Position numbers and translations under genes: made by a program. From a virus, in the IMG/VR virus record IMGVR_UViG_3300005676_000020, positions 78,130-142,129 of that record: a DNA stretch of 64,000 nt; one strand, given 5' to 3'. Positions 8,142 through 39,698 of this stretch are shown here, piece after piece (positions within the stretch are counted from its first letter, which is position 1; every line of letters begins with the position of its first letter). The notes beneath the pieces were generated by a model. That model worked only from the letters and a program-made list of their open reading frames with translations, was not told the DNA's origin and did not search any database.

Positions 8142-8170
8142 GACGAAAGTGTTTAGTGGTTGATTTTATG

Positions 8171-8242
8171 TTCTGCAGGTAGGAGTCGAACCTACAACCT
8201 CCCAGATAAAAGCTAGGGCTCTACCAATTGAGCTACTGCAGA
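8171..8242 (-). tRNA. tRNA-Lys(UUU)
   Basis: TCTGCAG/CTGCAGA acceptor stem, GCTC/GAGC D-stem with TGG loop, CCTAG-CTTTTAT-CTGGG anticodon arm, GTAGG-TTCGACT-CCTAC T-arm; no encoded CCA. Confidence 0.85.
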
Positions 8243-18779: not shown

Positions 18780-19124
18780 TTATGAAATACAACACTTTTT
18801 AAACTTCTTTCCGCTGCCGCAGGGGCAAGGCTCATTTCTGCCTGGTTCTTTTTCTACTCGTATTGGATGTACAGGTCGATGGCCTTTTTTGAGTATATAT
18901 GCACATTCACTTCTCAGTTTTTCTATACGGCCATCCTGTATAGATTTCTCCAGGTTATCCAGGGTAGTGCTGGCAATATATTTTACGTTGCCATTTTTAT
19001 CATCAGCAATAATGGTTACTTCTTTTTTGCCTTTGTAGTTGCCATACCATTCTTTCAGGCTGGCAATATTGCTGAGCAGCTCTTGATTTGTAACTCCGAT
19101 TACTTTGATAGTTGGTGTTTGCAT
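18780..19124 (-). CDS. SEC-C motif protein
   Basis: [19 protein letters not shown]. Confidence 0.85.
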
Positions 19125-19301
19125 GTTTACCTGCTTTTATGTTTATTCGGCATTACCACCATGTCTCAGGTTCCGAAGTCATTTAAGGGGTATATCTAGC
19201 CCAGATGTACCACTGTATCCGGATACAATGGATAATCTATGAGCTACAGCTGCATCAGGAGTTGATTGACTGTGGCTTACACAGCTATCAATAAGGTCTG
19301 C

Positions 19302-19465
19302 CTATACGACTTAGGTGTGCTGTTACGCCAAAGTAGTACTATCTTCAGGTAGCATAGTACACGAGCTGCTGAAGTCAGCTTTTCCGGGTGTTTCCCTACG
19401 CCTAAGCGAAAAGGTTACACTCTTTAGATGATGGCTGCTTCCAAGCCTACATTCCGGTCATATAG
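19302..19465 (-). ncRNA. 23S rRNA H43/H44 (uL11-binding GTPase-associated centre) mimic with a structured insertion
   Basis: Minus strand ATGTAGGCTTGGAAGCAGCCATCATCTAAAGAGT...[~90 nt]...GCGTAACAGCACAC, enclosed by a 9-bp stem CTATATGAC/GTCGTATAG; lies in a gene-free interval. Confidence 0.8.
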
Positions 19466-19606
19466 AATAGCCATATAGATCGCGGAAAAATTTGTTTAAT
19501 CGGCAAATATTTATTGACTATCGATAAATCAGCTGTGTTGTACACATCAACTGAAATCCACACAACTGCAACAAAATCAACAAGTTATGCTGTTTATCCA
19601 GTCACA

Positions 19607-19882
19607 TTAGTTGTCTCCGTGCTGATTTCGTATATCTTTAGTCATGGCCTCAACCATAGCCTCTACTGTAAACTTGCCTATATAGTCCATAATAGGCTTT
19701 AATGCCTGCATTTTGTCCTTTTCCTCAGACTTAGCGGCTATAGTACAGGCTGCAGCAGCACCGCCCATGAATAAAGTCTTGGCACTCATATCGTTAGGGT
19801 CATGTCCAGTTCTATTGCACATGTCCTGCCATTTTTCTTCTATTGTCATAAGTCTCGTTTTTACTGTTGGGTTTATACACAA
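19607..19882 (-). CDS. hypothetical protein (paralog of 19963-20184)
   Basis: W.DMC..TG.DP...LFMGGA versus W.ELC..NN.DP...SFYLGA. Confidence 0.6.
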   Translation of the reverse strand: MCINPTVKTRLMTIEEKWQDMCNRTGHDPNDMSAKTLFMGGAAAACTIAAKSEEKDKMQALKPIMDYIGKFTVEAMVEAMTKDIRNQHGDN

Positions 19883-20184: not shown

Positions 20185-20255
20185 ACCAATAATTTGAGGA
20201 GTTAAGTCTGGATGTATGACGCAGTAGGCCGTAATGTCTTTGATAAGGACAGGCT

Positions 20256-20288
20256 AAAAGGATTGGGCAGGATTGCTCCCGCCCAATC
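20256..20288 (-). terminator. intrinsic terminator
   Basis: Minus strand GATTGGGCGGGAGCAATCCTGCCCAATC followed by CTTTT. Confidence 0.75.
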
Positions 20289-20296
20289 GGCTATTT

Positions 20297-20779
20297 CTAC
20301 GCACCGGCATTCTGCAACGGTGTTTCGGCCTTGGCCTCTGTAGTGGCTGGTTCTTCAGCCTCAACGGTGGCTGCCGGCACGGCAGTACCCTTGGTACCGT
20401 AGAACGCTGCAACGGCTGCGGCAGAGTTCTTCACGCCGAACTGTTCGGCAAGTTTCACCTTGTCGAAGAATTCACCTGCTGCCTCTACACCTGTGTCTAC
20501 AAGGTTGATGTAGAAGTTACCGGTGCCTTCACCTTCCGGTGTACGGCTTTCATTCAGGCGGATTGCCACGTTGCGTGCAACGCCCAGCTGTCCGATACGG
20601 TTACGTGAATACAGGATTTTTGTACCTTCTTCACGGCCGTCGTAGACGCCGCCAACCTGCTCCAGCAATTCAGCGACTGCTGGGTCTTCTGCGTTTACAA
20701 TTTGGAACGCGTAGCTGCCATTCTTGTTAGGCACGCTGCTCAAACGCTTGAGTTTGAGGTGTTTTACTTGTGTTTCCAT
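20297..20779 (-). CDS. hypothetical early protein with Ala/Glu-rich tail
   Basis: Has its own upstream motif and terminator. Confidence 0.7.
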   Translation of the reverse strand: METQVKHLKLKRLSSVPNKNGSYAFQIVNAEDPAVAELLEQVGGVYDGREEGTKILYSRNRIGQLGVARNVAIRLNESRTPEGEGTGNFYINLVDTGVEAAGEFFDKVKLAEQFGVKNSAAAVAAFYGTKGTAVPAATVEAEEPATTEAKAETPLQNAGA

Positions 20780-20887
20780 GTTTGTGTTTTTGGAGTTTTA
20801 ATTGTTATATAAAGCTAATGTGAAAACCCCGTTGTTGATAGGGACATATGGGCAAAACAGGCTTGTAAGTGCCTGTAATGCAAGTTG

Positions 20888-21151
20888 TTATGGGACAGCT
20901 ATTGGCTCTTTAATGGTTTTAACCCGGAATCCATATGCTGACTCCTCAATACAGTTGATTATATCACGAGAGCTAAAGTTACGATACCAGCCAAATGGCC
21001 TTTTTCCTGTGATAGGATTATGGTTCATAACAATGACTACGCAGTTTTCTCTCAATGTCTTATCCCTTCCAGCTGTTAATCTTGAAGGGAATTTAGTAAA
21101 TGGTGATGCTAATATCTCCAATACTCTTTCAGTAAATGTGGAATTTTTCAT
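20888..21151 (-). CDS. hypothetical early protein
   Basis: Start reassigned to MKNSTFTE (ATG 21151). Confidence 0.55.
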   Translation of the reverse strand: MKNSTFTERVLEILASPFTKFPSRLTAGRDKTLRENCVVIVMNHNPITGKRPFGWYRNFSSRDIINCIEESAYGFRVKTIKEPIAVP

Positions 21152-21299
21152 AACGATGAATGACAGGTTTAGGTTAAATAGCACACAAGGTTGTCAGTCT
21201 TGTGTGCTATGACAGTCAGTCGCTTGCCCTTACTGGAGCGCTTGGAGCTAAGACTGTCGAACTGAGTATGGAGTTGTTGATAGGGAAATACAGGTGATG

Positions 21300-21331
21300 T
21301 AAACATCCAGCCTACCGTAGTAGACTGGATG
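21300..21331 (-). terminator. intrinsic terminator-like hairpin
   Basis: Minus strand ACATCCAGTCTAC-TACG-GTAGGCTGGATGT then TT, downstream of 21340-21750. Confidence 0.65.
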
Positions 21332-21339
21332 TCAATGTC

Positions 21340-21750
21340 TTATGCGTCGGCTTTTACACCATGTTGTAGCCCTACAAGCGACAGCAGCCTGTCAAGTGAG
21401 CCTTCGAGCTCATTCTTACGCTGGTGGAACTCAACCCTCTCCCTTATATCGGCCAACAGGTCAAGGAAATGGTGCACTGACATGAGAGATGACCGCCCAT
21501 TAATAATGGTTTCATTGAGCTGTTCGATGTGGCAGTCTACGATGACCGTATTGTCTCTGGCGTCTTTTATGACAACCCAGTTACGATTAGGGTCTACCAT
21601 AACACCAACCTCAATGTTGTAGTTGTCGTCCTTGCCACGCCGGCCATTTACATACCGTGTGAACTTGTCCATTTGACGGGTTTTCGACCATGGTGTGAAC
21701 ATCAAGGCTACTAACCATAGTAACCTCAACTTAAGCATGAATGTTTTCAT
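21340..21750 (-). CDS. hypothetical early protein
   Basis: First gene of the left arm. Confidence 0.6.
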   Translation of the reverse strand: MKTFMLKLRLLWLVALMFTPWSKTRQMDKFTRYVNGRRGKDDNYNIEVGVMVDPNRNWVVIKDARDNTVIVDCHIEQLNETIINGRSSLMSVHHFLDLLADIRERVEFHQRKNELEGSLDRLLSLVGLQHGVKADA

Positions 21751-21842
21751 GTTGCATTTGGTTTAGATATGAAACAATATATTGTCGAAATTATTTGACC
21801 TGTTATTGATAAGGACATACAACTGAAATCAACCTCTAGCAA

Positions 21843-21905
21843 AGAGGGGGTACCCCGCTTGGTAAGATTAATGGGGGGTTGTTGGATGGGGGACCCACCT
21901 CCTCG
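21843..21905. other. G-run-rich strand-switch locus (candidate packaging/terminus site)
   Basis: GGGGGTACCCC, GGGGGG and GGGGGACCC between the divergent gene arms. Confidence 0.4.
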
Positions 21906-21983
21906 CAATATACGGGTAAGATTTTCAGTAGGGCATATATACCGTCCGGAACCCCTAATATTCTGGCCGGACGGACACTTTTA

Positions 21984-22015
21984 TTTGGTTCTTTGATCTC
22001 CGGTTCTTACCTTTA
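21984..22015 (+). promoter_or_regulatory. Bacteroidota-type promoter
   Basis: TTTG-N20-TACCTTTA just before ATG 22020. Confidence 0.6.
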
Positions 22016-22019
22016 CATT

Positions 22020-22253
22020 ATGAAGTCATATACTCAGCTCCTGGAGCAAATACGTCAGTTATTCCCTTATGCGACGGATGTTCGTATTGAGGTTGACACT
22101 ACTACGGCCGACATGGACAATCTGCCGCTGGACACTGGTACTAGTTTTGTCAAGGTAACCACCCCAGTTCAGGATAAGGTTACTATAACCACCCCTTATG
22201 GGTCTATAAACATCAGGAACAATGGACGCAGCGCAATATTTCATAGCATTTGA
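22020..22253 (+). CDS. hypothetical protein
   Basis: Start reassigned to MKSYTQLL. Confidence 0.55.
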   Translation: MKSYTQLLEQIRQLFPYATDVRIEVDTTTADMDNLPLDTGTSFVKVTTPVQDKVTITTPYGSINIRNNGRSAIFHSI

Positions 22254-22327
22254 CGACCTTAGCCCTGGGCTGGAGGTCCTGATCTGGATGTTTGCCGTCT
22301 TGGCGACCATCACAATAATCTTTTTAT

Positions 22328-22780
22328 ATGTATACTACAAAGCAAGAAAATGACTATTTTGTGCCGGCCCTAGAAGATATCCGGGTAGGCTATGAGTGTG
22401 AAATGACCTTACCGACAAAAGATTGGTGGACTCATGATACTTGGACAAAGTGTGTCCTGGAAGATAAAGCTTGTATATGGAATTCGGAAATATCTGAATT
22501 AGATGGGGCAATAGATAAAATACCCCTTAACCAGATACGAGTCCCTTATCTAACTAAGGAACAAATAGAGAAAGAAGATTGGACTGTAGAAACTGACGAG
22601 GGTAACGGTGTCATAGATTTCAAAAAAGACCAGTATAAATACTTGTCGTGGAACTATGTTTTGAAAACTATTGAAATAAATAACGGAGTTACCACCACTA
22701 GGTTTGGTAATCACCTCTTTAGAGGGGAGTGTAAAGATATAAACACATTTAGATACATATGCAAACTACTACGACTATAA
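22328..22780 (+). CDS. hypothetical phage protein
   Basis: P.LEDIRVGYECE...IRVPYLTKEQIEKE...FRGECKDIN.F family pattern. Confidence 0.65.
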   Translation: MYTTKQENDYFVPALEDIRVGYECEMTLPTKDWWTHDTWTKCVLEDKACIWNSEISELDGAIDKIPLNQIRVPYLTKEQIEKEDWTVETDEGNGVIDFKKDQYKYLSWNYVLKTIEINNGVTTTRFGNHLFRGECKDINTFRYICKLLRL

Positions 22781-22971
22781 TCTGCCCAAAGACCTGTAAA
22801 CCATGCCAGGAAAGTGGTTGTACAGGAAATAACTGCAGGCTGGAAAAACCTTCATTTCCTAACTATGGTTGGATTTGTCCGATATGCGGGAGAGGACTGT
22901 CTCCTTATGCGACATCCTGTGGCTGTAAAGACCCGCAGTGGACGGTAACCTGCACCAACAAAATAACATGA
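22759..22971 (+). CDS. small Cys-rich zinc-finger-like protein
   Basis: GWICPICGRGLSPY..SC.C. Confidence 0.55.
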   Translation: MQTTTTIICPKTCKPCQESGCTGNNCRLEKPSFPNYGWICPICGRGLSPYATSCGCKDPQWTVTCTNKIT

Positions 22972-23420
22972 TGAACACTGACCTGATGTTTAGCAGCAAA
23001 ACTGAGATGTGGGCTACACCTCAGCGGTTTTTCGACGAACTACAGTTAAAGTATAACTTCTCCCTAGACGTATGCGCCGTAGCAGAAAATGCAAAGTGCA
23101 AAAAGTTTTTTACCCCGGAACAGGACGGACTTAAACAAACCTGGGAAGGTAGCTGTTGGATGAACCCTCCTTATGGAAGGGAAATCGGCCGCTGGGTAAA
23201 AAAGGCATATCAACAGGCAGTAGAAGAAGGTAATTGCACCGTAGTGGCATTGTTGCCGGCCAGGACCGATACCCGGTGGTTTCATGACTACATCTACAAT
23301 AAAGAACATGTTGAAATACAGTTTATTAAAGGTCGCTTAAAATTTGGAGACGGACTCAACTCGGCGCCGTTCCCGTCAATGCTCGTCCTGTTTAAAATAA
23401 ATTTGGAAACGCTGGCGTAA
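22968..23420 (+). CDS. phage DNA N6-adenine methyltransferase (Dam-like)
   Basis: W.TPQ.FF, LDVCA, WMNPPYG, LLPARTDTRWFH, FIKGRLKF, APFPS. Confidence 0.9.
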   Translation: MMNTDLMFSSKTEMWATPQRFFDELQLKYNFSLDVCAVAENAKCKKFFTPEQDGLKQTWEGSCWMNPPYGREIGRWVKKAYQQAVEEGNCTVVALLPARTDTRWFHDYIYNKEHVEIQFIKGRLKFGDGLNSAPFPSMLVLFKINLETLA

Positions 23421-23433
23421 GGTCGTATCTTCG
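23402..23433 (+). promoter_or_regulatory. Bacteroidota-type promoter
   Basis: TTTG-N20-TATCTTCG before ATG 23439. Confidence 0.6.
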
Positions 23434-23438
23434 CCTCG

Positions 23439-24170
23439 ATGAAAAAGTACATAACCATTGAAAGGGTCTTGCTGCTGTTGCTGCTGGGCCTTTTTATATT
23501 CAGAGAAGTCAAACATGACAAACAGTACAAAGAGCTGTCGCTAAGAAATGCACAGCTTGACACACTGACCAATAAGCTAGGTCAGCAGGTGATCGTGTCA
23601 CAGACAGAACTGACACAGTCTCAAGAGGCTTTGAGAGCCGCTACAGACTCTTTCTTTAACCTGCGCCGGCAGGATGAGAAGAGGATAAAAGATATTATAG
23701 CCTTCTACAAAGGCACTACTAACACGGTAATACGTGAAGTACTGGTGCCGTACGTGGACAAAGAACAGATGAAAGAATGGGAGGATTCTGTCCGCCAGAA
23801 CTGCTCAAAGGTCATCGACTACTATGAGGCTAATACGGTTACCGTCCCCCGTTCTGCCAAAGACAGTTCCGAACATTACGATGCTTCATTCACAGTAACC
23901 ATGAACGGAGTAAAGATAGACTCACTATCAGTTCCGGACTCTCAGTACCTTAGGTTCGTTACCCTAAAAGGAGGGTTCCTGAAAAAAGATCAACAAGGTA
24001 AAAGACGGCTCTTCCTTAAAAAGAGCCTACAGGTACAGGTTATACATACCAATCCGCTGGTCCAGGTCACAGGTCAGACATCAGCGGTCTATGAACCACC
24101 TAAAAAGGGAAACTTCCTGTTCAAGGCCGGTCTGATCGCGCTCGGGATGTTTCTGGGAACAAAGCTATGA
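23439..24170 (+). CDS. membrane-anchored coiled-coil protein, candidate spanin
   Basis: N-terminal TM, helical periplasmic region, C-terminal hydrophobic helix. Confidence 0.5.
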   Translation: MKKYITIERVLLLLLLGLFIFREVKHDKQYKELSLRNAQLDTLTNKLGQQVIVSQTELTQSQEALRAATDSFFNLRRQDEKRIKDIIAFYKGTTNTVIREVLVPYVDKEQMKEWEDSVRQNCSKVIDYYEANTVTVPRSAKDSSEHYDASFTVTMNGVKIDSLSVPDSQYLRFVTLKGGFLKKDQQGKRRLFLKKSLQVQVIHTNPLVQVTGQTSAVYEPPKKGNFLFKAGLIALGMFLGTKL

Positions 24171-24346
24171 CAGCCATACCCGGTGATATTGTCGTAGACA
24201 ATGGCATCCATTTTTTCGTATATTTCGAAGAAAATGATACCTTATATTGTAAGCCGATGTCAAATCATGACCTTTTCGGCTACTTTGACGGAGAATATTT
24301 TTTGATAACCCATAAAAACTATAGCATTGTCACCCCAGTCTTTTGA
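24167..24346 (+). CDS. hypothetical protein (59 aa)
   Basis: Hand translation MTAIPGDIVVDNG...YSIVTPVF; ATGA overlap. Confidence 0.5.
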   Translation: MTAIPGDIVVDNGIHFFVYFEENDTLYCKPMSNHDLFGYFDGEYFLITHKNYSIVTPVF

Positions 24347-24441
24347 TGAAACCCAGGACCATCTTATCTTTCCCGATAAATGGTATTATATTAACGGCAG
24401 TTTTATGCCAGGAACCGAATACATTAACTTATTAAAACTCA

Positions 24442-24654
24442 ATGAACTATACACTGAAAGGGCACAAGTCATCCTTTGGGGACGAACAGGACGCCCTGAT
24501 ATACCCGGACAGGGAATACGTGACCGATTTATTGATAAACAATAAATTTATGGTGATGACCGGTGAAGAAGTACTCAACCACCGGTACCCTATAGAATCA
24601 TATTCATTTTTAATCGTAAATTTAGCAGAAGATGAAAACAGAAGACTTACTTAA
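24442..24654 (+). CDS. hypothetical protein
   Basis: ORF track. Confidence 0.5.
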   Translation: MNYTLKGHKSSFGDEQDALIYPDREYVTDLLINNKFMVMTGEEVLNHRYPIESYSFLIVNLAEDENRRLT

Positions 24655-24937
24655 ATTTTCAGAACCGGTTGACTACACAGAACCGAAGAAGGGACTTTGG
24701 CAAACCCTTAACGAACCTAACAGGGTCATGTATACTATTGGCTCATTTAACCTAAAAATGTTTGAAGATGCTGTCTCTGAGCTCTATTTTGGAAAAACTA
24801 CAAGCTGGACGTGTGTATCATATCCGGATGGCGGACCAGTCGATGAGTCTGAGCAAAGCTCACCTGGTCAAGGAGATACACAGGTTATCGGAAACGATGA
24901 GCCCCGACCAGATACTGAGGATGATCGTGTACTATGA
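24632..24937 (+). CDS. hypothetical protein
   Basis: ORF track. Confidence 0.45.
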   Translation: MKTEDLLKFSEPVDYTEPKKGLWQTLNEPNRVMYTIGSFNLKMFEDAVSELYFGKTTSWTCVSYPDGGPVDESEQSSPGQGDTQVIGNDEPRPDTEDDRVL

Positions 24938-25032
24938 CGACGACCTCAACTTAATAAATTTGGCCGATTCATGAAAATTGGCTAAATTCTGTTATAAAAC
25001 TTAGCAGGTTGTAAGTAATCTGCACAAATACT

Positions 25033-25647
25033 ATGGCAACAAAATTCTATGCCCGGGAAGGTGTCGTTTTCAAAGGTAAAAGCGACAATCCCCCAAAAAG
25101 CGGCTTCGACCTCGAAAGACTGCTTAAGTTCCAACTCTCCGTTCTTAACGTTCCTTTTAACGACGACTGCTGCACAGATTCTACACATCTGCCGTTAGCC
25201 TTCAATTCTGAAACTAGTGAACTGGTATCTTACGATCCTGCTACAGACACATGGGTTATCGCCGATATAATAGATTCTATCAGAACGATCGTCAAAGACC
25301 AGATTGAAGAGGATGGACTTCAAGGTAACGGCAATATGATCGCTACCTTTATTCCGCCAGCTGAGCAGGATGACATAGCAGCTGGTGTCGGTGGAGCAAT
25401 CTCCGTGGCAAACTACCTCACCACTATCAACACTGATGCTGGTGGAGATGCGTTTACTCTGGCCGATGGCGATCAAATCGGACAGCTTAAAAAAATCCTG
25501 TTAGTGGTTGACGGTGGCGGAAACGCGGTAATTACCGTAGATAACGGACCGACAATCACCATGGGCGATGCCGGTGACTATGTAGTCCTCATATGGGATG
25601 GCGTCGACTGGATTGTAATCGAAAATTCAGGTTGTAGCTTATCGTAA
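25033..25647 (+). CDS. putative virion/structural beta-rich protein
   Basis: C-terminal FTLADGDQIGQLKKI...GDYVVLIWDGVDW domain typical of phage structural proteins. Confidence 0.55.
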   Translation: MATKFYAREGVVFKGKSDNPPKSGFDLERLLKFQLSVLNVPFNDDCCTDSTHLPLAFNSETSELVSYDPATDTWVIADIIDSIRTIVKDQIEEDGLQGNGNMIATFIPPAEQDDIAAGVGGAISVANYLTTINTDAGGDAFTLADGDQIGQLKKILLVVDGGGNAVITVDNGPTITMGDAGDYVVLIWDGVDWIVIENSGCSLS

Positions 25648-25892
25648 TGATTAAACAGTCGCTACTTGAACTAGCTACGCCGCTAGATGCTTTTGTGAGG
25701 AATATTGGACCGTGTACGGTCCTGTTCCTTATTCTGGCAACACCTTCTCCCAAGTTTATCGTCCGGGTATCCTGTAAAGGAGATCTCCGGACGGTAGATA
25801 TGGAGGATATCAAAGTTTATGGCGACCCCGCAACCGGTGAAGCCTTAATACCAGAAATTCCGAAAGATTGGATAAAGAATGACCGAGATTGA
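25647..25892 (+). CDS. hypothetical protein
   Basis: ORF track; TAATG coupling. Confidence 0.55.
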   Translation: MIKQSLLELATPLDAFVRNIGPCTVLFLILATPSPKFIVRVSCKGDLRTVDMEDIKVYGDPATGEALIPEIPKDWIKNDRD

Positions 25893-26310
25893 ACAGATAC
25901 GAGAACTCAGCCGATTTTATCAGGTTCCTGTCCGTTTTGTTAAGGAAAAGGAACGGGCTGGTTATTTTGACCTAAGAGGTATGGTAATTTACATTGCCAA
26001 AGACTATCACGATCCTGTATCTGTATTTTTTCATGAACTTGGTCATTTGTATTGTGTGATTAACGGCCTGTGGGGGTTCTATCACAGACCTCTGCGCCGT
26101 AGTAAGAATGGAGTCCTTTTCTGCACTAAATCTCATGCCAGGGCTGTTTTGAGAACCGGCTACAGAGCTGAGAAATGGGTTGATAAATGGGCTAAGGAAG
26201 AAATGAGTATGTGGTTTCCTGACAAACGTTATCCAAACTCCTACAGTCATCCGGCTGCCAGGGTTTGGCTTTACAAAAATCATCTTATCACCTACAGTAA
26301 TTATTTATGA
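25879..26310 (+). CDS. HExxH zinc metallopeptidase-like protein (ImmA/IrrE-like)
   Basis: FFHELGH...AEKWVDKWA. Confidence 0.65.
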   Translation: MTEIEQIRELSRFYQVPVRFVKEKERAGYFDLRGMVIYIAKDYHDPVSVFFHELGHLYCVINGLWGFYHRPLRRSKNGVLFCTKSHARAVLRTGYRAEKWVDKWAKEEMSMWFPDKRYPNSYSHPAARVWLYKNHLITYSNYL

Positions 26311-26630
26311 AAATCGAAAATGTTCTTCCTTATGCAATTGCCGCAATTTTGCCAGTTATCACCTGGTTTATGGGCCGAAAAAAGGAACGTGCCAATCTTG
26401 AGAGTCAGGAGTTAATGAACTTCGAAAAGGCCGTAAGTATCTGGAAAACTCTGGCCAGTGACATGGAGCAAGAAATGTTAAAGTGGAAAAGGATCAGCGA
26501 GCAACTCAAGGAGGAGCTCGAAAAGTTAAAGGGTGAGGTAGAGACCCTTCGCGAAGAGAACACTAAGATGATCCACGAACTAGAACGACTTACAAAACTT
26601 TTAAATAAACGAGCAAAAAATGCTGACTGA
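26307..26630 (+). CDS. holin-like TM plus coiled-coil protein
   Basis: One N-terminal TM and a long coiled coil, directly upstream of the endolysin. Confidence 0.55.
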   Translation: MKIENVLPYAIAAILPVITWFMGRKKERANLESQELMNFEKAVSIWKTLASDMEQEMLKWKRISEQLKEELEKLKGEVETLREENTKMIHELERLTKLLNKRAKNAD

Positions 26631-27084
26631 TCAACAAATAATCGCAAAATACGGTAAACCTGGCGACGAAGACAACTTTGTAGTCATTCCTTTACCCTAT
26701 CCTATGGTTCTGGCCTATCCCCCGTATTCTACAGTTACGAAGATGCGCTGTCATAAACTACTTGCGCCTACATTTACAGCTGTCTTCAACGAAATACTGG
26801 CAGCATACGGTCTGGAGAAGATTAAAGAACTGGACATAGACAAGTTCGCCGGCTGCGTAGCTGTAAGGCTGCAGCGCGGATCAAAGAACAAATGGAGCCG
26901 TCACTCCTGGGGTATCGCCATCGACCTGAGCCCGGCTAAGAACGGTCTGAAGACTAAATGGCCACAATCTCAGTTTGCAAAGCCGGAATATGCAAAGCTG
27001 CATCAGATATTCGAAAAATATGACTTCATCAACTACGGCAAGGTCCGGGGATTCGACGCTATGCACTTCGAAATCAACAAGTAA
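26620..27084 (+). CDS. endolysin, M15-family peptidase
   Basis: SRHSWGIAIDL and DAMHFE motifs. Confidence 0.85.
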   Translation: MLTDQQIIAKYGKPGDEDNFVVIPLPYPMVLAYPPYSTVTKMRCHKLLAPTFTAVFNEILAAYGLEKIKELDIDKFAGCVAVRLQRGSKNKWSRHSWGIAIDLSPAKNGLKTKWPQSQFAKPEYAKLHQIFEKYDFINYGKVRGFDAMHFEINK

Positions 27085-27095
27085 ACCCCCCATAT

Positions 27096-27131
27096 ATGAA
27101 AAAGAAAGGTAAAAAGGGCGGCTGCAAATAA
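27096..27131 (+). CDS. 11-aa basic micropeptide MKKKGKKGGCK
   Basis: Fills the gap between the endolysin stop and the terminator. Confidence 0.4.
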   Translation: MKKKGKKGGCK

Positions 27132-27138
27132 GCTGCCG

Positions 27139-27163
27139 GGTCCGGGAAACCGGACCTTTTTTT
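27139..27163 (+). terminator. intrinsic terminator
   Basis: GGTCCGG-GAAA-CCGGACC followed by a T-run. Confidence 0.85.
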
Positions 27164-27175
27164 GTATATTGTAAT

Positions 27176-27598
27176 ATGAAATATACCGAACGATTCTTTA
27201 AGTTTCCGATAAGGCTATACCTGACAAAGGATGTCCAGGAAAGATATGAGCTGGAAGAAAAGCTCAATATCGAACTGAGCAGTGACGATGACGACCTTGA
27301 CTATGTCATAGGTTGGGAACATGTTGACCCAGACGAGATATTTGGATACGGCTCAGTGTTTTCAAGGAATCTCACTCTTGAAGAGGTAAAAGAAAAGGGG
27401 TTTGACTGCACGATAGTCTACCTGAGAAATGGCAAGGAGATAGCCAGTTCGTGGTCTCCAAAGAAGTTTGCTGAGAAACTTGACTCCTTCTACGAACAAT
27501 ACGAAGACTTCCGCCGCAAGGAAATGCAGGACCGGATAGAAGAGATGGTCGACCCGCCAAAAAGGAAGAATTTCTTCCAGCGCCTGTTCAACTTATAA
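27176..27598 (+). CDS. hypothetical protein
   Basis: ORF track. Confidence 0.65.
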   Translation: MKYTERFFKFPIRLYLTKDVQERYELEEKLNIELSSDDDDLDYVIGWEHVDPDEIFGYGSVFSRNLTLEEVKEKGFDCTIVYLRNGKEIASSWSPKKFAEKLDSFYEQYEDFRRKEMQDRIEEMVDPPKRKNFFQRLFNL

Positions 27599-27655
27599 CT
27601 CTTTAATAGTTAATATTAAATTTGGAAATCTTTAAAGTTTGTCATAGATTATACT

Positions 27656-27874
27656 ATGGCAGACGTAAAAAACAATATAAAAAAGTTACAGCCCGAAGAC
27701 CGGGCTAAGCTTGTAAAGAACCTTGAGCAAAACCTCGAATTACTGAATCTTCAGGCGATGGTCGCCGAGTCCCGGGCCCGTATCAAGAAGGCTAACCTGG
27801 AAGAGATCATCTACGCGGTGAAGATAGAGGAATTGAAGAACCCTCCAAAACCCCAAACTGATGGAAAAAGTTAA
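27656..27874 (+). CDS. hypothetical coiled-coil protein
   Basis: Preceded by TTTG-N20-TAGATTAT. Confidence 0.6.
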   Translation: MADVKNNIKKLQPEDRAKLVKNLEQNLELLNLQAMVAESRARIKKANLEEIIYAVKIEELKNPPKPQTDGKS

Positions 27875-28211
27875 ACTTGTCCAGCAACGGGTGAGGTTTT
27901 CTTCTTTAGATCAGATAGTAAAGCTCCAGTTCATCATCTACTGTTATATAAAGAACATACATCTCACGCCGGGCGACTATAATCTGCTCACGCACATCGC
28001 CATGTACGGCTACGACCGTAAAGGGACACCCGAAGAACTGGTAAAACAGAAGAAATTCTTGCATAAACAGTCAGTTCGCAACAGTCGGAACAAGCTTTTA
28101 AAGCAAGGATTGCTGGTTTTAGTCGATAAAAACCGGTGTACTATCGATCCTGCGCTAAAAATAGAGAGTTTTGGGCCGATTATGATTGATTTTAAAGCTA
28201 TTTCTTCATGA
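27861..28211 (+). CDS. winged-helix-like protein
   Basis: QSVRNSRNKLLKQGLLV pattern. Confidence 0.55.
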   Translation: MEKVKLVQQRVRFSSLDQIVKLQFIIYCYIKNIHLTPGDYNLLTHIAMYGYDRKGTPEELVKQKKFLHKQSVRNSRNKLLKQGLLVLVDKNRCTIDPALKIESFGPIMIDFKAISS

Positions 28212-28618
28212 AAGTGCTAAAAAAGGCGGATTTATTGCCAGAAGTAGCCAAGGAACTCGGAATAGATCCGAAAATTGTCGAGTTAATCGTCAATGCATAC
28301 TGGAAAGAGGTCATAACGGCGGTCAGAGAGCTTAGACACCTCAATATTTTCATAGCGGAGATAGGTGATCTGCGAATAGCCAGGACAAAATTGGACGGTG
28401 TCGAGTCCCGGATGGAAGAATATCTTAAAAAACATCCTCCGGAAAGCCCTCAGCACCAGACAGTGGCCAAAAAACTTGAAGGTATACGGCGTCTAAAGCT
28501 GATTAGGCAGACAGAGTACGACAAAAGGGAAGATGTACGTGAAAAACGAAAAGAGTATGAAAAAACTTCAAAAAATATGGGCGAAGAAGTGGAAGATCCT
28601 GGAAGGGGTCTGGTATAA
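28208..28618 (+). CDS. HU/IHF-like DNA-binding protein
   Basis: KKADLLPEVAKELGI...VELIVNAYW...NIFIAEIGDLRI; typical position in crAss-like genomes. Confidence 0.65.
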   Translation: MKVLKKADLLPEVAKELGIDPKIVELIVNAYWKEVITAVRELRHLNIFIAEIGDLRIARTKLDGVESRMEEYLKKHPPESPQHQTVAKKLEGIRRLKLIRQTEYDKREDVREKRKEYEKTSKNMGEEVEDPGRGLV

Positions 28619-28904
28619 CCACATCGTCTTCACCTTTAATAAGAAGCATTGGGCTTTTAAAAAAGTTGATGAGCGCCGTCAGATATGTGCAGGTTGCCCT
28701 TTTCTTGACGCGGACGGAAGTTCAGAGAATACTGTTATAAAAGGGAAACCCGCCTGCGGTATCTGCGGATGTAATATTAAAGAGTTGACAGCTTGCCTGT
28801 CCTGTAACTGTTCGGCTGACCAGCCTTATTGGACGGCTATCAACATAAAAGATGACTATAAGATAGAAGCGGCTATCGACATAAAAGATAAGCAAAATGG
28901 TTAA
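28557..28904 (+). CDS. Cys-rich hypothetical protein
   Basis: RRQICAGCP...CGICGC...CLSCNC. Confidence 0.6.
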   Translation: MKKLQKIWAKKWKILEGVWYNHIVFTFNKKHWAFKKVDERRQICAGCPFLDADGSSENTVIKGKPACGICGCNIKELTACLSCNCSADQPYWTAINIKDDYKIEAAIDIKDKQNG

Positions 28905-29640
28905 GTTCATAGAAGATACACATCAATACCTTTCTCTGGAGGACCAGAGCCCCTGGGTATCTGTTACTCAGCTCATACACAAGTATGAACCTAAGAAGAA
29001 CTGGGACCAGATAGCGGCCAGGTATGCAAAGAAGCATAACCTGAACGTTGCCGATGTAAAAGCTAAATGGCGCCGGGAAAATGAAATCTCCGTGGAAAGA
29101 GGTGTTAAGTTCCATAAACAGCGCGAACAGGACCTTCTGTCCTGTGAGACTATTGACGAGACCGGCACCGCTCTTAAAATATTCAGGCCGATAATCGACG
29201 AGAAAGGTGACAAAATAGCACCTTCCCAGAAGCTGGAAGACGGTATCTACCCAGAACTGCTGGTCTTATTGAACTCTGCCAGAATCTGTGGTCAGGCTGA
29301 CTACGTGTGGATACACGATAACAAGGTGAATATACGCGACTACAAGACCAATAAAGAGATAAAGAAGAACGCTTTTGTCAACTGGGAAGGTATCGAAGAG
29401 AAGATGGTAGACCCTATAGGGTCAATACCTAACTGTAACTATTGGCACTATGCCCTGCAGCTTAATATTTACGCGTATATTATCCGTAAAAACAACCCTC
29501 GGCTGAAGCTTGGTGACCTGGAACTTCTGCATGTAAAGTTTGACGAGAACGAAGAAGTTTGCGGAATGGACAAGTACCTGCTCCCGGACCTGCAGAGCGA
29601 AGTATTCAAACTGATTACTCATTATAAAAACGCAAGATAA
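28897..29640 (+). CDS. PD-(D/E)XK nuclease
   Basis: SVTQLI, RGVKFH, ICGQAD, IRDYKT, HYALQLNIY. Confidence 0.85.
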   Translation: MVKFIEDTHQYLSLEDQSPWVSVTQLIHKYEPKKNWDQIAARYAKKHNLNVADVKAKWRRENEISVERGVKFHKQREQDLLSCETIDETGTALKIFRPIIDEKGDKIAPSQKLEDGIYPELLVLLNSARICGQADYVWIHDNKVNIRDYKTNKEIKKNAFVNWEGIEEKMVDPIGSIPNCNYWHYALQLNIYAYIIRKNNPRLKLGDLELLHVKFDENEEVCGMDKYLLPDLQSEVFKLITHYKNAR

Positions 29641-29882
29641 TGGACATTTTGTACAATCGAATCTTCTGGTGTGAGATGGTAGACCCCAATGATCCCGATA
29701 ACCGGTTCAGAATATTTGGTGACCGCGAAGGTGACAAGATTTATGTAGAGAAGAACAACAACATAATAGAACTAGATAAGGTGCAACAGGCTCAGCTGGC
29801 ATCTTTTATCATTCAAAAAATAACAAATGACCTTAAGGAACAATCAAAAATCGCAAGAGATGTTAAAACAAACCTACAATGA
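29640..29882 (+). CDS. hypothetical protein
   Basis: ORF track. Confidence 0.55.
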   Translation: MDILYNRIFWCEMVDPNDPDNRFRIFGDREGDKIYVEKNNNIIELDKVQQAQLASFIIQKITNDLKEQSKIARDVKTNLQ

Positions 29883-30075
29883 CGACGAATTCCGGGTAAA
29901 GACCACAGAACTGGGCTTTACAATGACCCTGACGTTTGACCGCTGGGGTGGAATGCGCATTACAAAACAGAATGTAAGTGACTACGGAACGAAAAAATAC
30001 CAGGAAATATACCTGCCACGCGACGCTATGTTCGACCTGGCCAATAAAATAATCAAAAACGAGTGTGGAAAATGA
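29827..30075 (+). CDS. hypothetical protein
   Basis: ORF track. Confidence 0.55.
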   Translation: MTLRNNQKSQEMLKQTYNDDEFRVKTTELGFTMTLTFDRWGGMRITKQNVSDYGTKKYQEIYLPRDAMFDLANKIIKNECGK

Positions 30076-30587
30076 TCCCTCAAATTTTTGACATACAGAA
30101 CGGGCAGCTCATCATAAACGAACACGTTCTGGCAATACCAGAACTTAAAGCTGTCTACGAAGCCTACGAAGACCCTAAACCGGCTCTGTTATTCCTTCGT
30201 CATCTATGTGACCCATATGGTCCATATAACCAGATAGAAGAAGAGATTAAAGAAGAAGCTATCTTCAACGACTTCCCTGGAGACTATTCGCCGGAAGATG
30301 AGGTGATGATGGCCGCCAGAAAGAAGCTGGAAACCTTTTACATGTCAGAAACCTACAAGTTCTACCTTGACAACAAGGTTCTTCTGGAGACGCTTGGTCG
30401 ATTTGCCAGAAGTGCCCAGGTTCAGCAAGGTCGGGATGGTAACTATACACAGATACTTTCACAGCTAAGTAATGTAGGTAAGATGATGGCTTCATTCGAA
30501 TCGTTGAAAGAACAGGCTAAGAAGGAGCTTGAGCGGTCCCGGGTTCGGGGAGGAGCTTTCCAGGCCTATGATCAAAATGAAGAATAA
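30063..30587 (+). CDS. conserved protein upstream of TerL (candidate terminase small subunit)
   Basis: Position, TAATG coupling to terL, and C-terminal RVRGG..AYDQ. Confidence 0.5.
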   Translation: MWKMIPQIFDIQNGQLIINEHVLAIPELKAVYEAYEDPKPALLFLRHLCDPYGPYNQIEEEIKEEAIFNDFPGDYSPEDEVMMAARKKLETFYMSETYKFYLDNKVLLETLGRFARSAQVQQGRDGNYTQILSQLSNVGKMMASFESLKEQAKKELERSRVRGGAFQAYDQNEE

Positions 30588-33500
30588 TGGTCTATAAGTT
30601 CCCAATATCAATCCCTACCTATTCTTCTGAAACTGACAGTTGGTCGTATACTACATTTGACACCTTAGCAGAGTTTCGTGAGTTTGCCGATAAGCTTTTT
30701 AAGGAACCTGGTAAGTACCGGTTCAATGAAACGTCAAGGATGTTTAACGAACAGGCAAGACTGTTCAGACAGAACAAAACTTACTGTTCGGCGCCATTTA
30801 AAAGCAAGGACTTTATAAAATACTGGGATCACGAAAAGGAAAAGTGTACGAAAGGCGCTATTTATACTGACGGCAGAAGGACTTGGTATCTGACCAGGGA
30901 CTATTATATGTGGCTGAACTTTCTGCCTATCTACGATAAGGAGGAAGGTTCTTTTGGCTTTGCAAAAATACGTGACGCACAGTATCATATGGCCCTCTAC
31001 GAACTGAGGGCCGAGTTGCATTTTAAACACTGCCCTATCTTAAAGAAAAGGCAGATTGCCAGTTCCTATTTTCACATGGCCAAATTACTGAATGCTTTCT
31101 GGTTTGAGAACGGAGCTGTCCTTAAAATGGGTGCTTCCCGTGAAGACTATATAAACCTGAAAGGTTCATGGAGATTTCTTACTGAATACCGTGACTTTCT
31201 TAATAAGTATACTGCCTGGTACCGGGCTTGTACTCCCGACAAGGTGCTAAACTGGCAACAGAGGATAGAGGTGACAACACCGGATGGTCGTAAGGCCTAC
31301 CAGGGTAATAAGTCACTATTTACCGGAACCTCTTTTGAAAAAGACCCTTCCGCTGGGGTGGGAGGTCCATGTCTGTTGAAAGGATCTCTTGTTATTATGT
31401 CAGACGGGTCTTACAAACCTGTGGAAGACATAAAGATTGGAGATTTCGTATGTGGAGCAGACGGTTTGCCCAAAAGAGTTCATAAACTGTATAGTGGCGA
31501 ATCACTAATGTACAAAGTTGAGCAAACCCGAGGTATGACTTACTACACTACAGGGAATCATATATTGTATTTATGGGATTCATACAACAACTCTTACAAA
31601 AAGATAAAAACCAAAGATTTTAATCTCTTATCAAAGAACCAAAAAGAGGTTATCCTAAAAGGTAAAAAATTTAAAGGTCTTGAAGGTTTTGAAAAAAATC
31701 TACCGGTAGATCCTTATTACCTGGGTTTGTATTTAGGGGACGGTTGTAAATACGATTTTACGATATTGGTGAATAGGACAAAAGATGTAGAAGTTTGGGA
31801 TTATATTCACAAATTGTCCTCAAGAGAAGGTCATACCTTGAAACTTAAAAACAAAAATTTATATAGAAACGATTACAACGATGATATGTGGGAGCTAAGC
31901 CTTGGTGTAGGTAAGGTCAGGAGACCTGATGTTTTGAAGACAAGTTATGTGTCAAAATTGAGAAAATTAGGATTATCAAATAAGCACATTCCACCGGAAT
32001 ACTTTTCTAGCTCTAGGTCGCAACGTCTCCAGCTTTTGGCCGGGATTCTCGATACTGATGGTTACTGGAACTCTAAAAAATATAGATACGAAATCTCTAT
32101 AAAGGACGATAGGTTGGCGTCAGATATCACAAGACTGTGTGTTCAATTAGGATTAAATACACAAGTGTGCAAGATTACCAATAACGGTGAGAAATCTACA
32201 GTTTATAATAAACCCCATTTCACCAATAGAATACATATCACAGGACCGGTTTTGAACATTCCTTGCAAGATAAACCGGAAAAAACCTACAAAAGAATCTC
32301 CAATAGCGTGTAGGAACACCAGTACTTTGACAGTCTCTGAGGATGAGATAAAAGAGTATTATGGTTTTGAATGTGAAGATAATCTGTTTGTTCTTGAAGA
32401 CGGGACTATTACTCATAATTGTACCTATTTCTTTCATGAAGAAGGTGGTATTGCGCCAAAAGCAGATAAGACATTCTTCTTTATGAAGCCGGCAATGCAA
32501 TCCGGTATGATAACGACAGGTGTGTTCATCATAGCAGGTTCTGTGGGTGAACTTGATAAATGTGAACCACTTAAAGAGATGATAATGCGTCCAGGTTCTG
32601 ACTTTATGTCAGTTACCCATAATATGATGGACGAGAACTGGACAGAAGGGACGACAGGACTGTTTATACCGGAACAGTGGAGTATGCCACCGTATATTGA
32701 CGAGTTCGGCAACTCGCTCGTAGAAGAAGCTCTTCAGGCAATATTTGAACAGAGAAAGATATGGAAGAAAGAATATAGCCCTGAGAAGTATCAGTATGAG
32801 GTGTCCCAGCACCCGATAAACATTAAAGAAGCGTTTGACTTCCGGACAGAGTCTGTATTTCCTATTCACCTGGTTCAAAAACAAATAGCGGCAATAGATA
32901 ACAAGGAAATCTTTCTTGAATACCTTGACATCTACCGTGACGAGCACGGTATGCCGAAGTTCAAGGAAAGTCGCAGACAACCTCTGTCGTTTCCTGTAGA
33001 TAAGAAACTTGAAGATAAAAGAGGTTGTATTATAGTTCATGAAAGACCGCCTGAAAATCCTGAGTGGGGTCTTTTCTATGCTTCTATTGACCCGGTAGGA
33101 GAAGGAAAAACAACTACCAGCGAATCTCTTTTCTGCATACAAATATACAAAGCTCCATTACAGAAGACGGTAGTTTCTTCAGAAGGTACAAAGTCTATCA
33201 TAGAAGGAGATAAGTTAGTAGCCAGCTGGACAGGAAGGTTCGATGATATCAACGACACCCATGAAACAGCGCTGCTTTTATTAGAAATATACAACGCCTG
33301 GGCACTGGTCGAATCGAACGTATCTCTGTTTATCCAGTATATGATTCTGAAAAACAAGCAGAAATACCTTGTGCCAAGAGACAGGATTGTCTTCTTACAG
33401 GAGATGAAGTCTAATCAAACGGTATACAGCCCGTATGGCTGGAAGAATACCGGAACCATATTTACAAACCACCTGCTTTCTTATTCTGTAGAATTCTGTA

Positions 33501-33814
33501 AAGAAGTCATAAACCAGGACTTCCTGCCAGACGGTTCAGCTATAAAAACCTACTACGGCGTAGAAAGGATTCATGACAGGTGGCTACTGGAAGAAATGTT
33601 GAAATATAGAGAAGGGGTGAACGTTGACCGGCTTGTAGCCTTCTCTGCCCTAGTGGCATTCAGGACACTGCTCCTGGCAAACCAGGGTTATAAGAAGACC
33701 ATTGAATATAAGGAAAATTTCAAAGAGTCCAAAAAAATGTATAACTTATCTACGTCCCCGTTCACTAATGTAGGTAAGCGCCGGGCTCGTAACCCCTTTA
33801 AAAACATCAGATAA
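30587..33814 (+). CDS. terL: terminase large subunit (intein-containing)
   Basis: crAss-type Walker A LKKRQIASSY, Walker B FFHEEGG, nuclease ASIDPV...ESN...NVDRLVA. Confidence 0.9.
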   Translation: MVYKFPISIPTYSSETDSWSYTTFDTLAEFREFADKLFKEPGKYRFNETSRMFNEQARLFRQNKTYCSAPFKSKDFIKYWDHEKEKCTKGAIYTDGRRTWYLTRDYYMWLNFLPIYDKEEGSFGFAKIRDAQYHMALYELRAELHFKHCPILKKRQIASSYFHMAKLLNAFWFENGAVLKMGASREDYINLKGSWRFLTEYRDFLNKYTAWYRACTPDKVLNWQQRIEVTTPDGRKAYQGNKSLFTGTSFEKDPSAGVGGPCLLKGSLVIMSDGSYKPVEDIKIGDFVCGADGLPKRVHKLYSGESLMYKVEQTRGMTYYTTGNHILYLWDSYNNSYKKIKTKDFNLLSKNQKEVILKGKKFKGLEGFEKNLPVDPYYLGLYLGDGCKYDFTILVNRTKDVEVWDYIHKLSSREGHTLKLKNKNLYRNDYNDDMWELSLGVGKVRRPDVLKTSYVSKLRKLGLSNKHIPPEYFSSSRSQRLQLLAGILDTDGYWNSKKYRYEISIKDDRLASDITRLCVQLGLNTQVCKITNNGEKSTVYNKPHFTNRIHITGPVLNIPCKINRKKPTKESPIACRNTSTLTVSEDEIKEYYGFECEDNLFVLEDGTITHNCTYFFHEEGGIAPKADKTFFFMKPAMQSGMITTGVFIIAGSVGELDKCEPLKEMIMRPGSDFMSVTHNMMDENWTEGTTGLFIPEQWSMPPYIDEFGNSLVEEALQAIFEQRKIWKKEYSPEKYQYEVSQHPINIKEAFDFRTESVFPIHLVQKQIAAIDNKEIFLEYLDIYRDEHGMPKFKESRRQPLSFPVDKKLEDKRGCIIVHERPPENPEWGLFYASIDPVGEGKTTTSESLFCIQIYKAPLQKTVVSSEGTKSIIEGDKLVASWTGRFDDINDTHETALLLLEIYNAWALVESNVSLFIQYMILKNKQKYLVPRDRIVFLQEMKSNQTVYSPYGWKNTGTIFTNHLLSYSVEFCKEVINQDFLPDGSAIKTYYGVERIHDRWLLEEMLKYREGVNVDRLVAFSALVAFRTLLLANQGYKKTIEYKENFKESKKMYNLSTSPFTNVGKRRARNPFKNIR
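31370..32419 (+). mobile_element. intein with LAGLIDADG homing endonuclease (350 aa)
   Basis: Starts CLLKGSLVIMSDG, block B TGNH, LGLYLGDG and LAGILDTDG, ends THN before a Cys extein residue. Confidence 0.92.
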
Positions 33815-36597: not shown

Positions 36598-36685
36598 AAG
36601 AAATGTAGAGGTGGCATTTTAGCCATATACTACAGAAAAATTATATAGAGTAAATTGAAAATGTTGTTTTTCAACAACTTAGTCC

Positions 36686-36698
36686 TATATTATTAATG
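36686..36698 (+). promoter_or_regulatory. putative late promoter element TATATTATTAATG
   Basis: Identical 13-mer at 41556-41568; related TATATTATATTG at 43416. Confidence 0.5.
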
Positions 36699-36718
36699 AA
36701 GAATAAAATCAAACCATT

Positions 36719-37954
36719 ATGTCAGAAAATACTATGTCTACAGCTGTCAAAGAAGTAACCTTTGACGCGGTTATCGCAGAGTTCGAAAAGACTGACGATC
36801 AACCAACAATAACACCAAAGTTCGTACCTAAAGAGGACGAAAACCATCAAATTCTTAATCAACCTGTAAAAAAGGAAGAAGAGAAGAAGGAGGTGGAAGA
36901 AGTTGACCCTAAAAAAACAGTGGTCGAAAAGAAGGAAGAAGTCAAAGATGTTACATCGGTCTTAGATAAGACCGGTGAAGAAGAGGAAGAAGAGGACGAC
37001 AAAAAGGATAATACGCCAGCTAACATGGCTTCTATCCTGGAAGATCTTACAAAAGAAGACATCATATTTCCATTTGCTGAGGACAAACCTTTGTCAGAGT
37101 ATAGTGTGGAGGATGTCAAAGAGTTGCTCAAAGCTAATATCGAATATCATAAGAAGGAGGCTTTGAACACAGAAATAAACGAGTTCTTTGAATCGTTGCC
37201 GACTGAAATCCAATATGCTGCAAAGTATGTGGCAGATGGTGGAACAGACTTGAAAGGTTTGTTCAAGGCCCTGGCTGCGACTGAAGAGATCAGAACCTTG
37301 GACGTAAAACAAGTAAAGGACCGAGAGTCAATCATCCGGGAATACTACCGGGCCATTGACTGGGGTACTGAATCTGAAATCGAAGAAGAAGTAGAAAGGG
37401 TTAAAGAGTTGGGAGAGAGTGAGTTAGAGAAACTTGCTAATAAGTACAAGCCGAAGTTGGAAAAGATGCACGAAGAAGTGATAAAACAACAACTTGACCG
37501 GCAGTCTAAAGCAAGGCAAAGGCAAGAGCAGGAAATGAACGATTACCTGGAAAATGCCAACGACACCATAATCTCCGGCAAACTCGGTGATATTCAGCTG
37601 GATAAAAAGACCCAGGCTGCATTATGGGCAGGGTTAACTCAGCCGAACTATCAGACAAGGCGTGGCGCGGCAACGAACGAACTTGGTCACTTGCTTGAAA
37701 AATACCAGTATACAGAACCCAATTTTGAGCTGGTTTACAAAGCATTATGGCTTCTGAGAGATGAGAAAGGCTTCGAAGAGGCAATGGCCAAGAAACTAAA
37801 AAATGAGGTAGTATCCCAGACCGTCCGTGTTCTAAAAACCGAACAGGGCAAGAAGGCAGCTACCGGCGAATCAGAAAAAGAAAAAGCTCCGGCAAAGAAA
37901 CAAAAAGTGATTCCAAGACAGACGCCGTCTTTTCTTTCTGGACTAAAAGGTTAA
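36719..37954 (+). CDS. putative scaffolding protein
   Basis: Acidic, helical, between portal and MCP. Confidence 0.6.
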   Translation: MSENTMSTAVKEVTFDAVIAEFEKTDDQPTITPKFVPKEDENHQILNQPVKKEEEKKEVEEVDPKKTVVEKKEEVKDVTSVLDKTGEEEEEEDDKKDNTPANMASILEDLTKEDIIFPFAEDKPLSEYSVEDVKELLKANIEYHKKEALNTEINEFFESLPTEIQYAAKYVADGGTDLKGLFKALAATEEIRTLDVKQVKDRESIIREYYRAIDWGTESEIEEEVERVKELGESELEKLANKYKPKLEKMHEEVIKQQLDRQSKARQRQEQEMNDYLENANDTIISGKLGDIQLDKKTQAALWAGLTQPNYQTRRGAATNELGHLLEKYQYTEPNFELVYKALWLLRDEKGFEEAMAKKLKNEVVSQTVRVLKTEQGKKAATGESEKEKAPAKKQKVIPRQTPSFLSGLKG

Positions 37955-37971
37955 ATTAAAACAACAATAAA

Positions 37972-39615: not shown

Positions 39616-39698
39616 TAATTGGGATGCGCCTTGGTACGGGCCCCTTGCGGGTATTGCGCAGTACGAATAAAGTATCTGAATAAGTACATCTTCCCATA

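Follow-up and report, generated by a model that had tools for sequence, protein, structure and literature searches.

Why should a phage carry, in a gap between two of its small genes, both halves of the GTPase-associated centre of 23S rRNA on a short stretch of their own? The locus in question lies in a 64,000-nt stretch of viral DNA (hereafter the window; IMG/VR record IMGVR_UViG_3300005676_000020, positions 78,130 to 142,129), where it takes up 164 nt of the minus strand at 19302-19465, in a single copy in the 142-kb phage genome. An initial annotation, made from the letters alone, had read it as a non-coding RNA that imitates helices H43 and H44 and has a built-in extra domain. With a copy of E. 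coli 23S rRNA fetched from a real genome (L002) as the reference, the identities reported there are confirmed: E. coli 1057-1088 agrees with window 19421-19452 at 29 of 32 positions, the differences being U1061A, A1067G and U1082C, and 1091-1104 agrees with 19315-19328 at 12 of 14, U1097C and U1101A being the exceptions. The parts of the locus are as follows.

19125-19606, minus strand: gap of 482 nt without a called gene, holding the element, between the minus-strand ORFs 19607-19882 and 18780-19124
19457-19465, minus strand: 5′ arm of the outer 9-bp closing stem, CUAUAUGAC, read directly from the sequence; the stem replaces the remainder of H42
19453-19456, minus strand: inner closing pairs, equivalent to 1053-1056 (alignment columns 4-5 with 246-247)
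19428-19452, minus strand: H43 mimic (1057-1081), with AUG/CAU base, U1060, A1061 and GGCU/AGCC stem
19419-19427, minus strand: junction 1082-1086 (CUAAA), then G1087, A1088, G1089 and U1090, from the sequence and the family alignment
19333-19418, minus strand: variable insert of 86 nt, with basal stem GUA (19416-19418)/UAC (19333-19335); inner hairpins are only predicted
19329-19332, minus strand: UUUG linker from insert to H44, a family signature (columns 229-232, at least 87% conserved)
19311-19328, minus strand: H44 top, GC[GUAACA]GC (1091-1100), then A1101, C1102, A1103, C1104, C1105 and UAA, from the sequence and the alignment
19302-19310, minus strand: 3′ arm of the outer 9-bp closing stem, GUCGUAUAG, complementary to 19457-19465

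The element closes upon itself, with GG/CC pairs and the 9-bp outer stem directly below 1051-1056/1103-1108. The inner closing stem is short, being formed by G1054 (19455) and G1055 (19454) paired with C1105 (19314) and C1104 (19315), while C19456 is unpaired and A19453 corresponds to position 1056; an internal loop follows, and then the outer stem, which is present where the initial annotation had placed a new 9-bp stem and contains one G-U pair. The loop of the H43 mimic (1065-1073) reads UUGGAAGCA and carries G1067, the 1082-1086 position is C.A, and the 1067/1097 state of this copy is G/C. Since typical bacterial 23S rRNA reads GAGU at 1087-1090, and GAGU is found at 19419-19422, the insert is placed between U1090 and G1091. 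The insertion of about 90 nt that had been described is therefore real, with its anatomy corrected to this site and to the UUUG linker that follows it, and the window copy shows the complete insert signature, namely the U1090/G1091 site, the GAGU and UUUG frame and an A at 1101 (19318).

Compared with the GTPase-associated centre itself (1051-1108, a 58-nt fragment of which binds uL11 and thiostrepton), sequence and secondary structure are homologous, and U1060, A1088, G1071/C1072, the G1091-C1100, C1092-G1099 and 1082-1086 pairs and A1084/A1085 are kept. Unlike the ribosomal centre, the element is a separate phage gene in which H42 is swapped for a private stem, and the 86-nt insert and the UUUG linker turn H44 into a three-way junction, with A rather than U at 1101. 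Nor does it have the features of a fragment of a 23S gene: H42-H45 are not contiguous, H43 and H44 being 86 nt apart; other rRNA sequence is absent from the flanks and from the remainder of the 482-nt gap, as had been claimed for the flanks; and Rfam gives no LSU match even at E<=10. The local H43-H44 match to the bacterial LSU model that the initial annotation had expected thus did not appear, either at the gathering score or at that relaxed threshold. In a blastn search against 5,426 E. coli genomes, the matches were to 23S rRNA only (37 nt, 89%).

Free-energy folding sets neither the element (z = -0.5) nor the insert alone (z = -1.4) apart from shuffled sequences. The four internal stems that had been proposed for the insert can be drawn, with no statistical or comparative support, so that of its supposed independent folding only the basal GUA/UAC stem, which is family-wide, stands, and the inner hairpins do not. 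The support for a structured RNA has come from elsewhere, namely from relatives.

These are numerous. The family comprises 91 viral loci, corresponding to 74 distinct elements of 98-213 nt with a single architecture, on contigs of 5-316 kb that are mostly large and widely spread in G+C content. The pattern scans of IMG/VR required the H43 and H44 loops at non-native distances, and gave 4 loci with gaps of 50-79 nt, 15 with 80-110, 45 with 111-141 and 20 with 142-172. A scan anchored on the H44 side only contributed seven more loci, representing three distinct variants in which H43 has one to several substitutions; of the 21 loci in that scan, 14 showed a perfect H43 loop and the rest a nearly perfect one. 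Phage homologues with variable inserts and covarying stems, which the initial annotation had called for, do therefore exist, and they keep both loops, a conservation that is in part an ascertainment effect of patterns demanding them.

All members follow one order: the first arm of a closing stem private to the element, then H43, the junction at 1082-1086, GAGU and the insert, after which come UUUG, GC-GUAAYA-GC, ACAC and the other arm of the closing stem. Almost all of them have an insert, which measures 37 to about 170 nt and is specific to the lineage. Just 5′ of the 3′ arm of the insert's basal stem, some carry a module, CACCCC-[hairpin with GNRA- or UAAC-type loop]-GGUAAGG (L026, L028, L035, L057, L080, L295, L296, L298, L300, L301, L304, L306, L310 and the pf16 element, L292), which is absent from the window insert. 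A subfamily (L003, L011, L068, L076 and L078) has an insert hairpin, GGAGUUAAUAGCC, reminiscent of the H44 loop. A second, optional hairpin of 20-30 nt follows A1077 in 7 of 52 aligned sequences (L019, L023, L032, L038, L039/L043 and L055), exactly where a single additional U occurs in the rRNA of Bacteroidota, an agreement suggesting that the site faces outwards and can accommodate insertions. The large insert is missing from the compact members L288:1760-1818 and L287:3713-3772, and because such members exist the insert is best regarded as accessory and the copied ribosomal core as the functional unit. The 'built-in extra domain' thus survives as a covarying basal stem on what is otherwise a hypervariable expansion. 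In L288, where H44 is close to the native form (GCUCAC) and more of H42 is retained, host rRNA may have been captured independently or at an ancestral stage.

Two members belong to cultured phages. In Pseudomonas phage pf16 (KU873925.1; L292:1198-1382) the element fills an unannotated gap between tRNA-Asn and tRNA-Pro, and in Xanthomonas jumbo phage XaC1 (OR258281.1; L294:1195-1424) it lies in an unannotated gap after a terminator-like hairpin; the 1095 loop is altered in both, to GUAGAA and GUGACA, respectively. A blastn search with the 601-nt window region against 50,697 phage records gave no match, unlike a 48-nt core query, with which members were found among the phage records. The window's insert has no relatives in any collection searched: a metagenome scan with a window-specific pattern returned nothing, and a looser one for G1067 returned 13 loci, none with this insert and four of them true 23S rRNA. 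The insert-bearing pattern occurs in none of 401 sampled Bacteroidota genomes. Four further candidates were rejected as genuine rRNA, namely L289-L291, with flanking rRNA sequence and no insert, and a stretch of Paenibacillus phage Pd_22F (L293; MZ092003.1 near 83976-84016), which is 23S rRNA with rRNA flanks near one end of the record and is probably host DNA or an assembly artefact. Rfam searches of 18 other loci matched tRNAs only, and no existing family in Rfam 15 covers the element, a point on which the claim of novelty had been made to depend; nor could we find a description in the searchable literature, so that this large family of phage RNAs is apparently undescribed in those sources.

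Whether the elements have been selected as RNA was examined on an alignment of 52 sequences (A1), with a structure written by hand and compared with shuffles and with slid 3′ partners. Under that structure the proportion of paired cells is 93.2%, compared with 68.4% after shuffling, and the covariation score is 0.601, against 0.140 in shuffles (reached by none of 500) and 0.08-0.15 after sliding the 3′ partners. Compensatory changes are found in all five pairs of the closing stem, in all five of the insert's basal stem and in two of three in basal H43 (e.g. AUG/CAU, CUG/CAG, AGG/CCU), where the 1057-1081 pair is AU in 32 and CG in 17 sequences and the 1058-1080 pair UA in 27, GC in 14 and AU in 7. 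The tertiary 1082-1086 pair covaries as well (U-A 20, C-G 19, A-U 5), and at the inner closing columns 4-5/246-247 a G-C pair, present in 40-41 of 52 sequences, gives way to A-U or C-G in the remainder. The pairs next to the loops are invariant and, being demanded by the search patterns, uninformative. RNAalifold, unaided, recovers the closing stem and the tops of H43 and H44.

U1060 and A1088 are invariant (52 of 52), as are A1084, A1085 and G1087 in the family alignment, and A1101, a U in native rRNA, is found in 50 of 52 members. Position 1061 varies freely (A in 19, U in 28, G in 4, C in 1); the A1061 stressed in the initial annotation is indeed present, and its stabilizing effect on the 58-nt fold is observed only with Mg2+ (PMC6239185).

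A covariance model (R1) built from 51 members, the window being excluded, finds exactly one match in the 64-kb window, at 19311-19458 on the minus strand (79.1 bits, E about 1e-17, model positions 1-159, the full length of R1). Because R1 also matches true 23S rRNA, at 51-65 bits, membership of the family rests on R1 taken together with self-closure, the insert and the lack of rRNA flanks. On this comparative evidence the window element is confirmed as a member of a selected, structured RNA family rather than rRNA debris. The initial annotation had argued as much from the precise boundaries and the self-closing stem, to which the 74 distinct elements and their covariation are now added.

The copy also seems to bear marks of its presumed host. 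Among the matches listed of 120 natural 23S sequences combining G1067 with GUAACA, nearly all are Bacteroidota, in agreement with what the initial annotation had stated for that phylum. The portal protein places the window's phage among the crAss-like phages, the listed hosts of which are mostly Bacteroidota (Bacteroides, Cellulophaga, Flavobacterium), and G1067/C1097 is thus the 23S state of the presumed host. The pf16 and XaC1 elements both carry A1067, which we take to be present in the rRNA of their hosts as well. No natural 23S in the species genomes scanned is identical to the joined window halves. Given that the window copy has the derived marks of the family (A1101, the UUUG linker and the insert site) and lacks the extra U that follows A1077 in Bacteroidota rRNA, it seems to be a host-adjusted member of the family and not a new capture of rRNA.

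tRNA genes are frequent in the genomic setting of the family. A tRNA gene lies within 100 nt of 34 of the 74 elements, on the same strand in all of them, and within 500 nt of 47, an arrangement that would fit co-transcription and processing into a stable RNA. One member (L003) has a tRNA-Glu gene on either side. The surrounding array includes a suppressor tRNA whose anticodon is CUA (L003:332-407) and a phage tmRNA (L003:2083-2433), which hint at stop-codon recoding in this phage. Other structured phage RNAs of unknown function, such as GOLLD and ROOL, often adjoin tRNA genes too (PMC12286853), with unrelated folds and no homology to rRNA; their Rfam models do not match the element.

The window copy is outside any such array, the nearest and only tRNA gene of the phage, tRNA-Lys(UUU) at 8170-8242 on the minus strand, being 11 kb away. 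tRNA-Lys(UUU) is cleaved by some of the anticodon nucleases used in defence, and the phage gene may encode a replacement tRNA. Around the element is a block of small minus-strand genes to which no function is assigned; the flanking proteins show a sub-threshold ASCH match, a SEC-C motif and a TPR match, and no informative family. Neither a sigma-70-type promoter nor an intrinsic terminator adjoins the element, a scan that means little for a crAss-like phage. A few other features of the genome may be recorded here. An island of higher G+C (0.55-0.58 against 0.42 for the genome) at 20200-20780, covering a 160-aa ORF without a family match, may have been acquired by transfer; an ORF of 1,931 aa at 54634-60429 on the plus strand combines several glycosyltransferase domains with a DNA-methyltransferase-like stretch; and ORFs of 4,018 and 3,121 aa are found at 20474-32530 and 33000-42365 of the genome (C1).

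When neighbouring ORFs were clustered, no protein family recurred beside the elements beyond close relatives. A 232-aa neighbour was considered as a partner of the family and rejected: its 80 related-locus matches were unrelated, mostly on contigs of about 40 kb, and the sole locus with both that gene and the element (L020) is taken as a coincidence. Neither an L11 gene nor a RelA/SpoT gene or domain was found in the window's phage. With no conserved neighbour protein, and in a phage lacking L11 and RelA/SpoT, the partner of the RNA should be a component of the host.

Which component this might be is suggested by the anatomy of the copy. The 58-nt domain folds autonomously and is sufficient for the C-terminal domain of uL11, binding of which requires the tertiary fold (PMC6239185, PMC1802607), and the U1060-A1088 pair is read by that domain (PMC2175356). 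The window copy has all these determinants, i.e. the nucleotides of the 58-nt tertiary fold and U1060-A1088, none of which varies among the 52 aligned sequences, and uL11 binding is the one interaction that the anatomy directly predicts. The reading we prefer, to which we give a probability of roughly 0.45, is that 19302-19465 would be the gene for a stable, trans-acting non-coding RNA, a free-standing, self-closed homologue of H43/H44 (E. coli 1051-1108) in which a private closing stem substitutes for the rest of H42 and the U1090/G1091 site admits a hypervariable expansion. Such an RNA would adopt the native tertiary structure of the GTPase-associated centre and bind host uL11 away from the ribosome, acting as a decoy, or forming a ribonucleoprotein, at the ribosome's factor-binding site, with downstream effects such as fewer uL11-bearing ribosomes and weaker activation of RelA. 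In its principle, the capture of a partner by an RNA that imitates its nucleic-acid target, this would resemble the abundant 6S RNA, a mimic of the open promoter, and the phage-encoded pseudo-ToxI antitoxin mimic (PMC3475682), from which it differs in having no sequence or structural relation to them and in imitating a functional centre of the ribosome.

Several observations weigh against this reading. The folding energy is at the level of shuffles (z = -0.5); the 1095 loop is changed in the cultured members, as described above; H44 departs from the native state in A1101, in a G.A pair at 1090′/1101 and in the three-way junction; the window copy is outside a tRNA array and has neither promoter nor terminator by the scan mentioned; and a pure uL11 sponge would leave the large variable insert of most members unexplained. 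The more specific proposal that large phages of many hosts encode a host-tuned free copy of the uL11- and factor-binding centre (G1067/C1097 here), which in the infected cell would strip ribosomes of exchangeable uL11 or keep it from newly made ones, phenocopying relC (rplK) mutants and switching off RelA-dependent (p)ppGpp or another uL11-dependent checkpoint, seems unlikely to us in that full form.

The conserved loops and the host-matched 1067/1097 state may also be read in terms of attack, the RNA being a decoy substrate that soaks up a host or competitor toxin, a defence effector or an antibiotic aimed at H43/H44 and so spares the ribosomes on which the phage depends, an explanation we consider improbable. 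Many members are within phage tRNA arrays, which are known sites of counter-defence RNAs, both exposed loops are highly conserved, in part by demand of the patterns, and the window's G1067/C1097 is the state of the 23S rRNA to be protected in the presumed Bacteroidota host. Agents of the kind exist: the toxin Tre23 modifies the GTPase-associated centre by ADP-ribosylation of 23S rRNA helix 44 (PMC8661411), and the 1067/1095 cleft is the binding site of thiopeptides (PMC2175356). However, no anti-phage system is known to target this centre, and the wide range of G+C contents in the family, and apparently of hosts, would call for a near-universal attacker; a free RNA below ribosome copy number would be poor protection from an enzyme, and H44 is non-native at 1101 and has the insert beside the target helix.

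The inserts, left without a role by a simple decoy, take the leading part if the rRNA-derived fold, perhaps with uL11 bound, is a nuclease-resistant and properly processed carrier comparable to tRNA scaffolds and the insert its working part, differing from one phage lineage to the next. The near-universality and lineage specificity of the inserts, their covarying basal stem, the modules common within subfamilies (e.g. CACCCC-hairpin-GGUAAGG) and the optional hairpin after A1077 would all be in keeping with such a function. Yet it is one that we doubt: insert-free members exist, a mere scaffold would need neither the invariant exposed loop nucleotides (U1066, G1068) nor the natural 1067/1097 states, and the insert of the window copy shows neither relatives nor an intrinsic fold signal.

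That the 1067 and 1095 loops, which touch the translation factors, are the most conserved parts could instead reflect a docking site that titrates or re-routes EF-G, EF-Tu, IF2, RF3 or RelA, with or without uL11. This is quite unlikely, as a sarcin-ricin-like motif is absent from about 90 elements (inserts up to 172 nt) and from the window, the L10/L7/L12 stalk site in H42 is missing, and the affinity of the factors for the isolated GTPase-centre domain is weak.

A regulatory role in cis has a precedent in the L10 (rplJ) leader (RF00557), likewise an extra-ribosomal RNA that imitates a ribosomal-protein site of the same 23S region, and the element is 177 nt upstream of the ORF at 18780-19124, which encodes a SEC-C motif protein on the same strand, so that it might be a uL11-controlled leader of the kind found in ribosomal-protein operons. 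The L10 leader, unlike the phage element, is a cis-acting 5′ UTR of a cellular gene and a loose imitation of the L10 site in H42, without H43/H44; the downstream gene here is the SEC-C ORF and not one for L11, nothing in Rfam matches, no ribosome-binding site is overlapped by the element, and in the family tRNA genes, not ORFs, adjoin 34 of 74 members, with no conserved neighbour protein family, all of which makes a leader very unlikely. Finally, non-functional captured host rRNA or an assembly chimera deserves next to no credence: true rRNA pieces do contaminate viral records (L289-L291, Pd_22F), but these have rRNA flanks and no insert, whereas the window element has private closing stems, the UUUG and A1101 signatures and extensive compensatory change, and the species genomes scanned contain no natural 23S with its exact composite sequence.

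Coming back to off-ribosome binding of uL11, the finding would be of some consequence for the biology of these phages. Should the RNA prove to be expressed and to bind uL11, or some other partner of the GTPase centre, its gene would be the first stand-alone one to reproduce a functional ribosomal centre, and would offer viruses a new route to interfere with translation or with the stringent response; were uL11 indeed withdrawn, this would amount to an RNA-based takeover of translation control. The presence of members in the cultured and tractable phages pf16 and XaC1 makes the idea directly testable. For genome annotation, the family explains unannotated gaps in phage tRNA arrays, and for the ribosome itself it provides a set of natural experiments on the GTPase-centre fold, in which sites that tolerate insertion and nucleotides that never change can be recognized.
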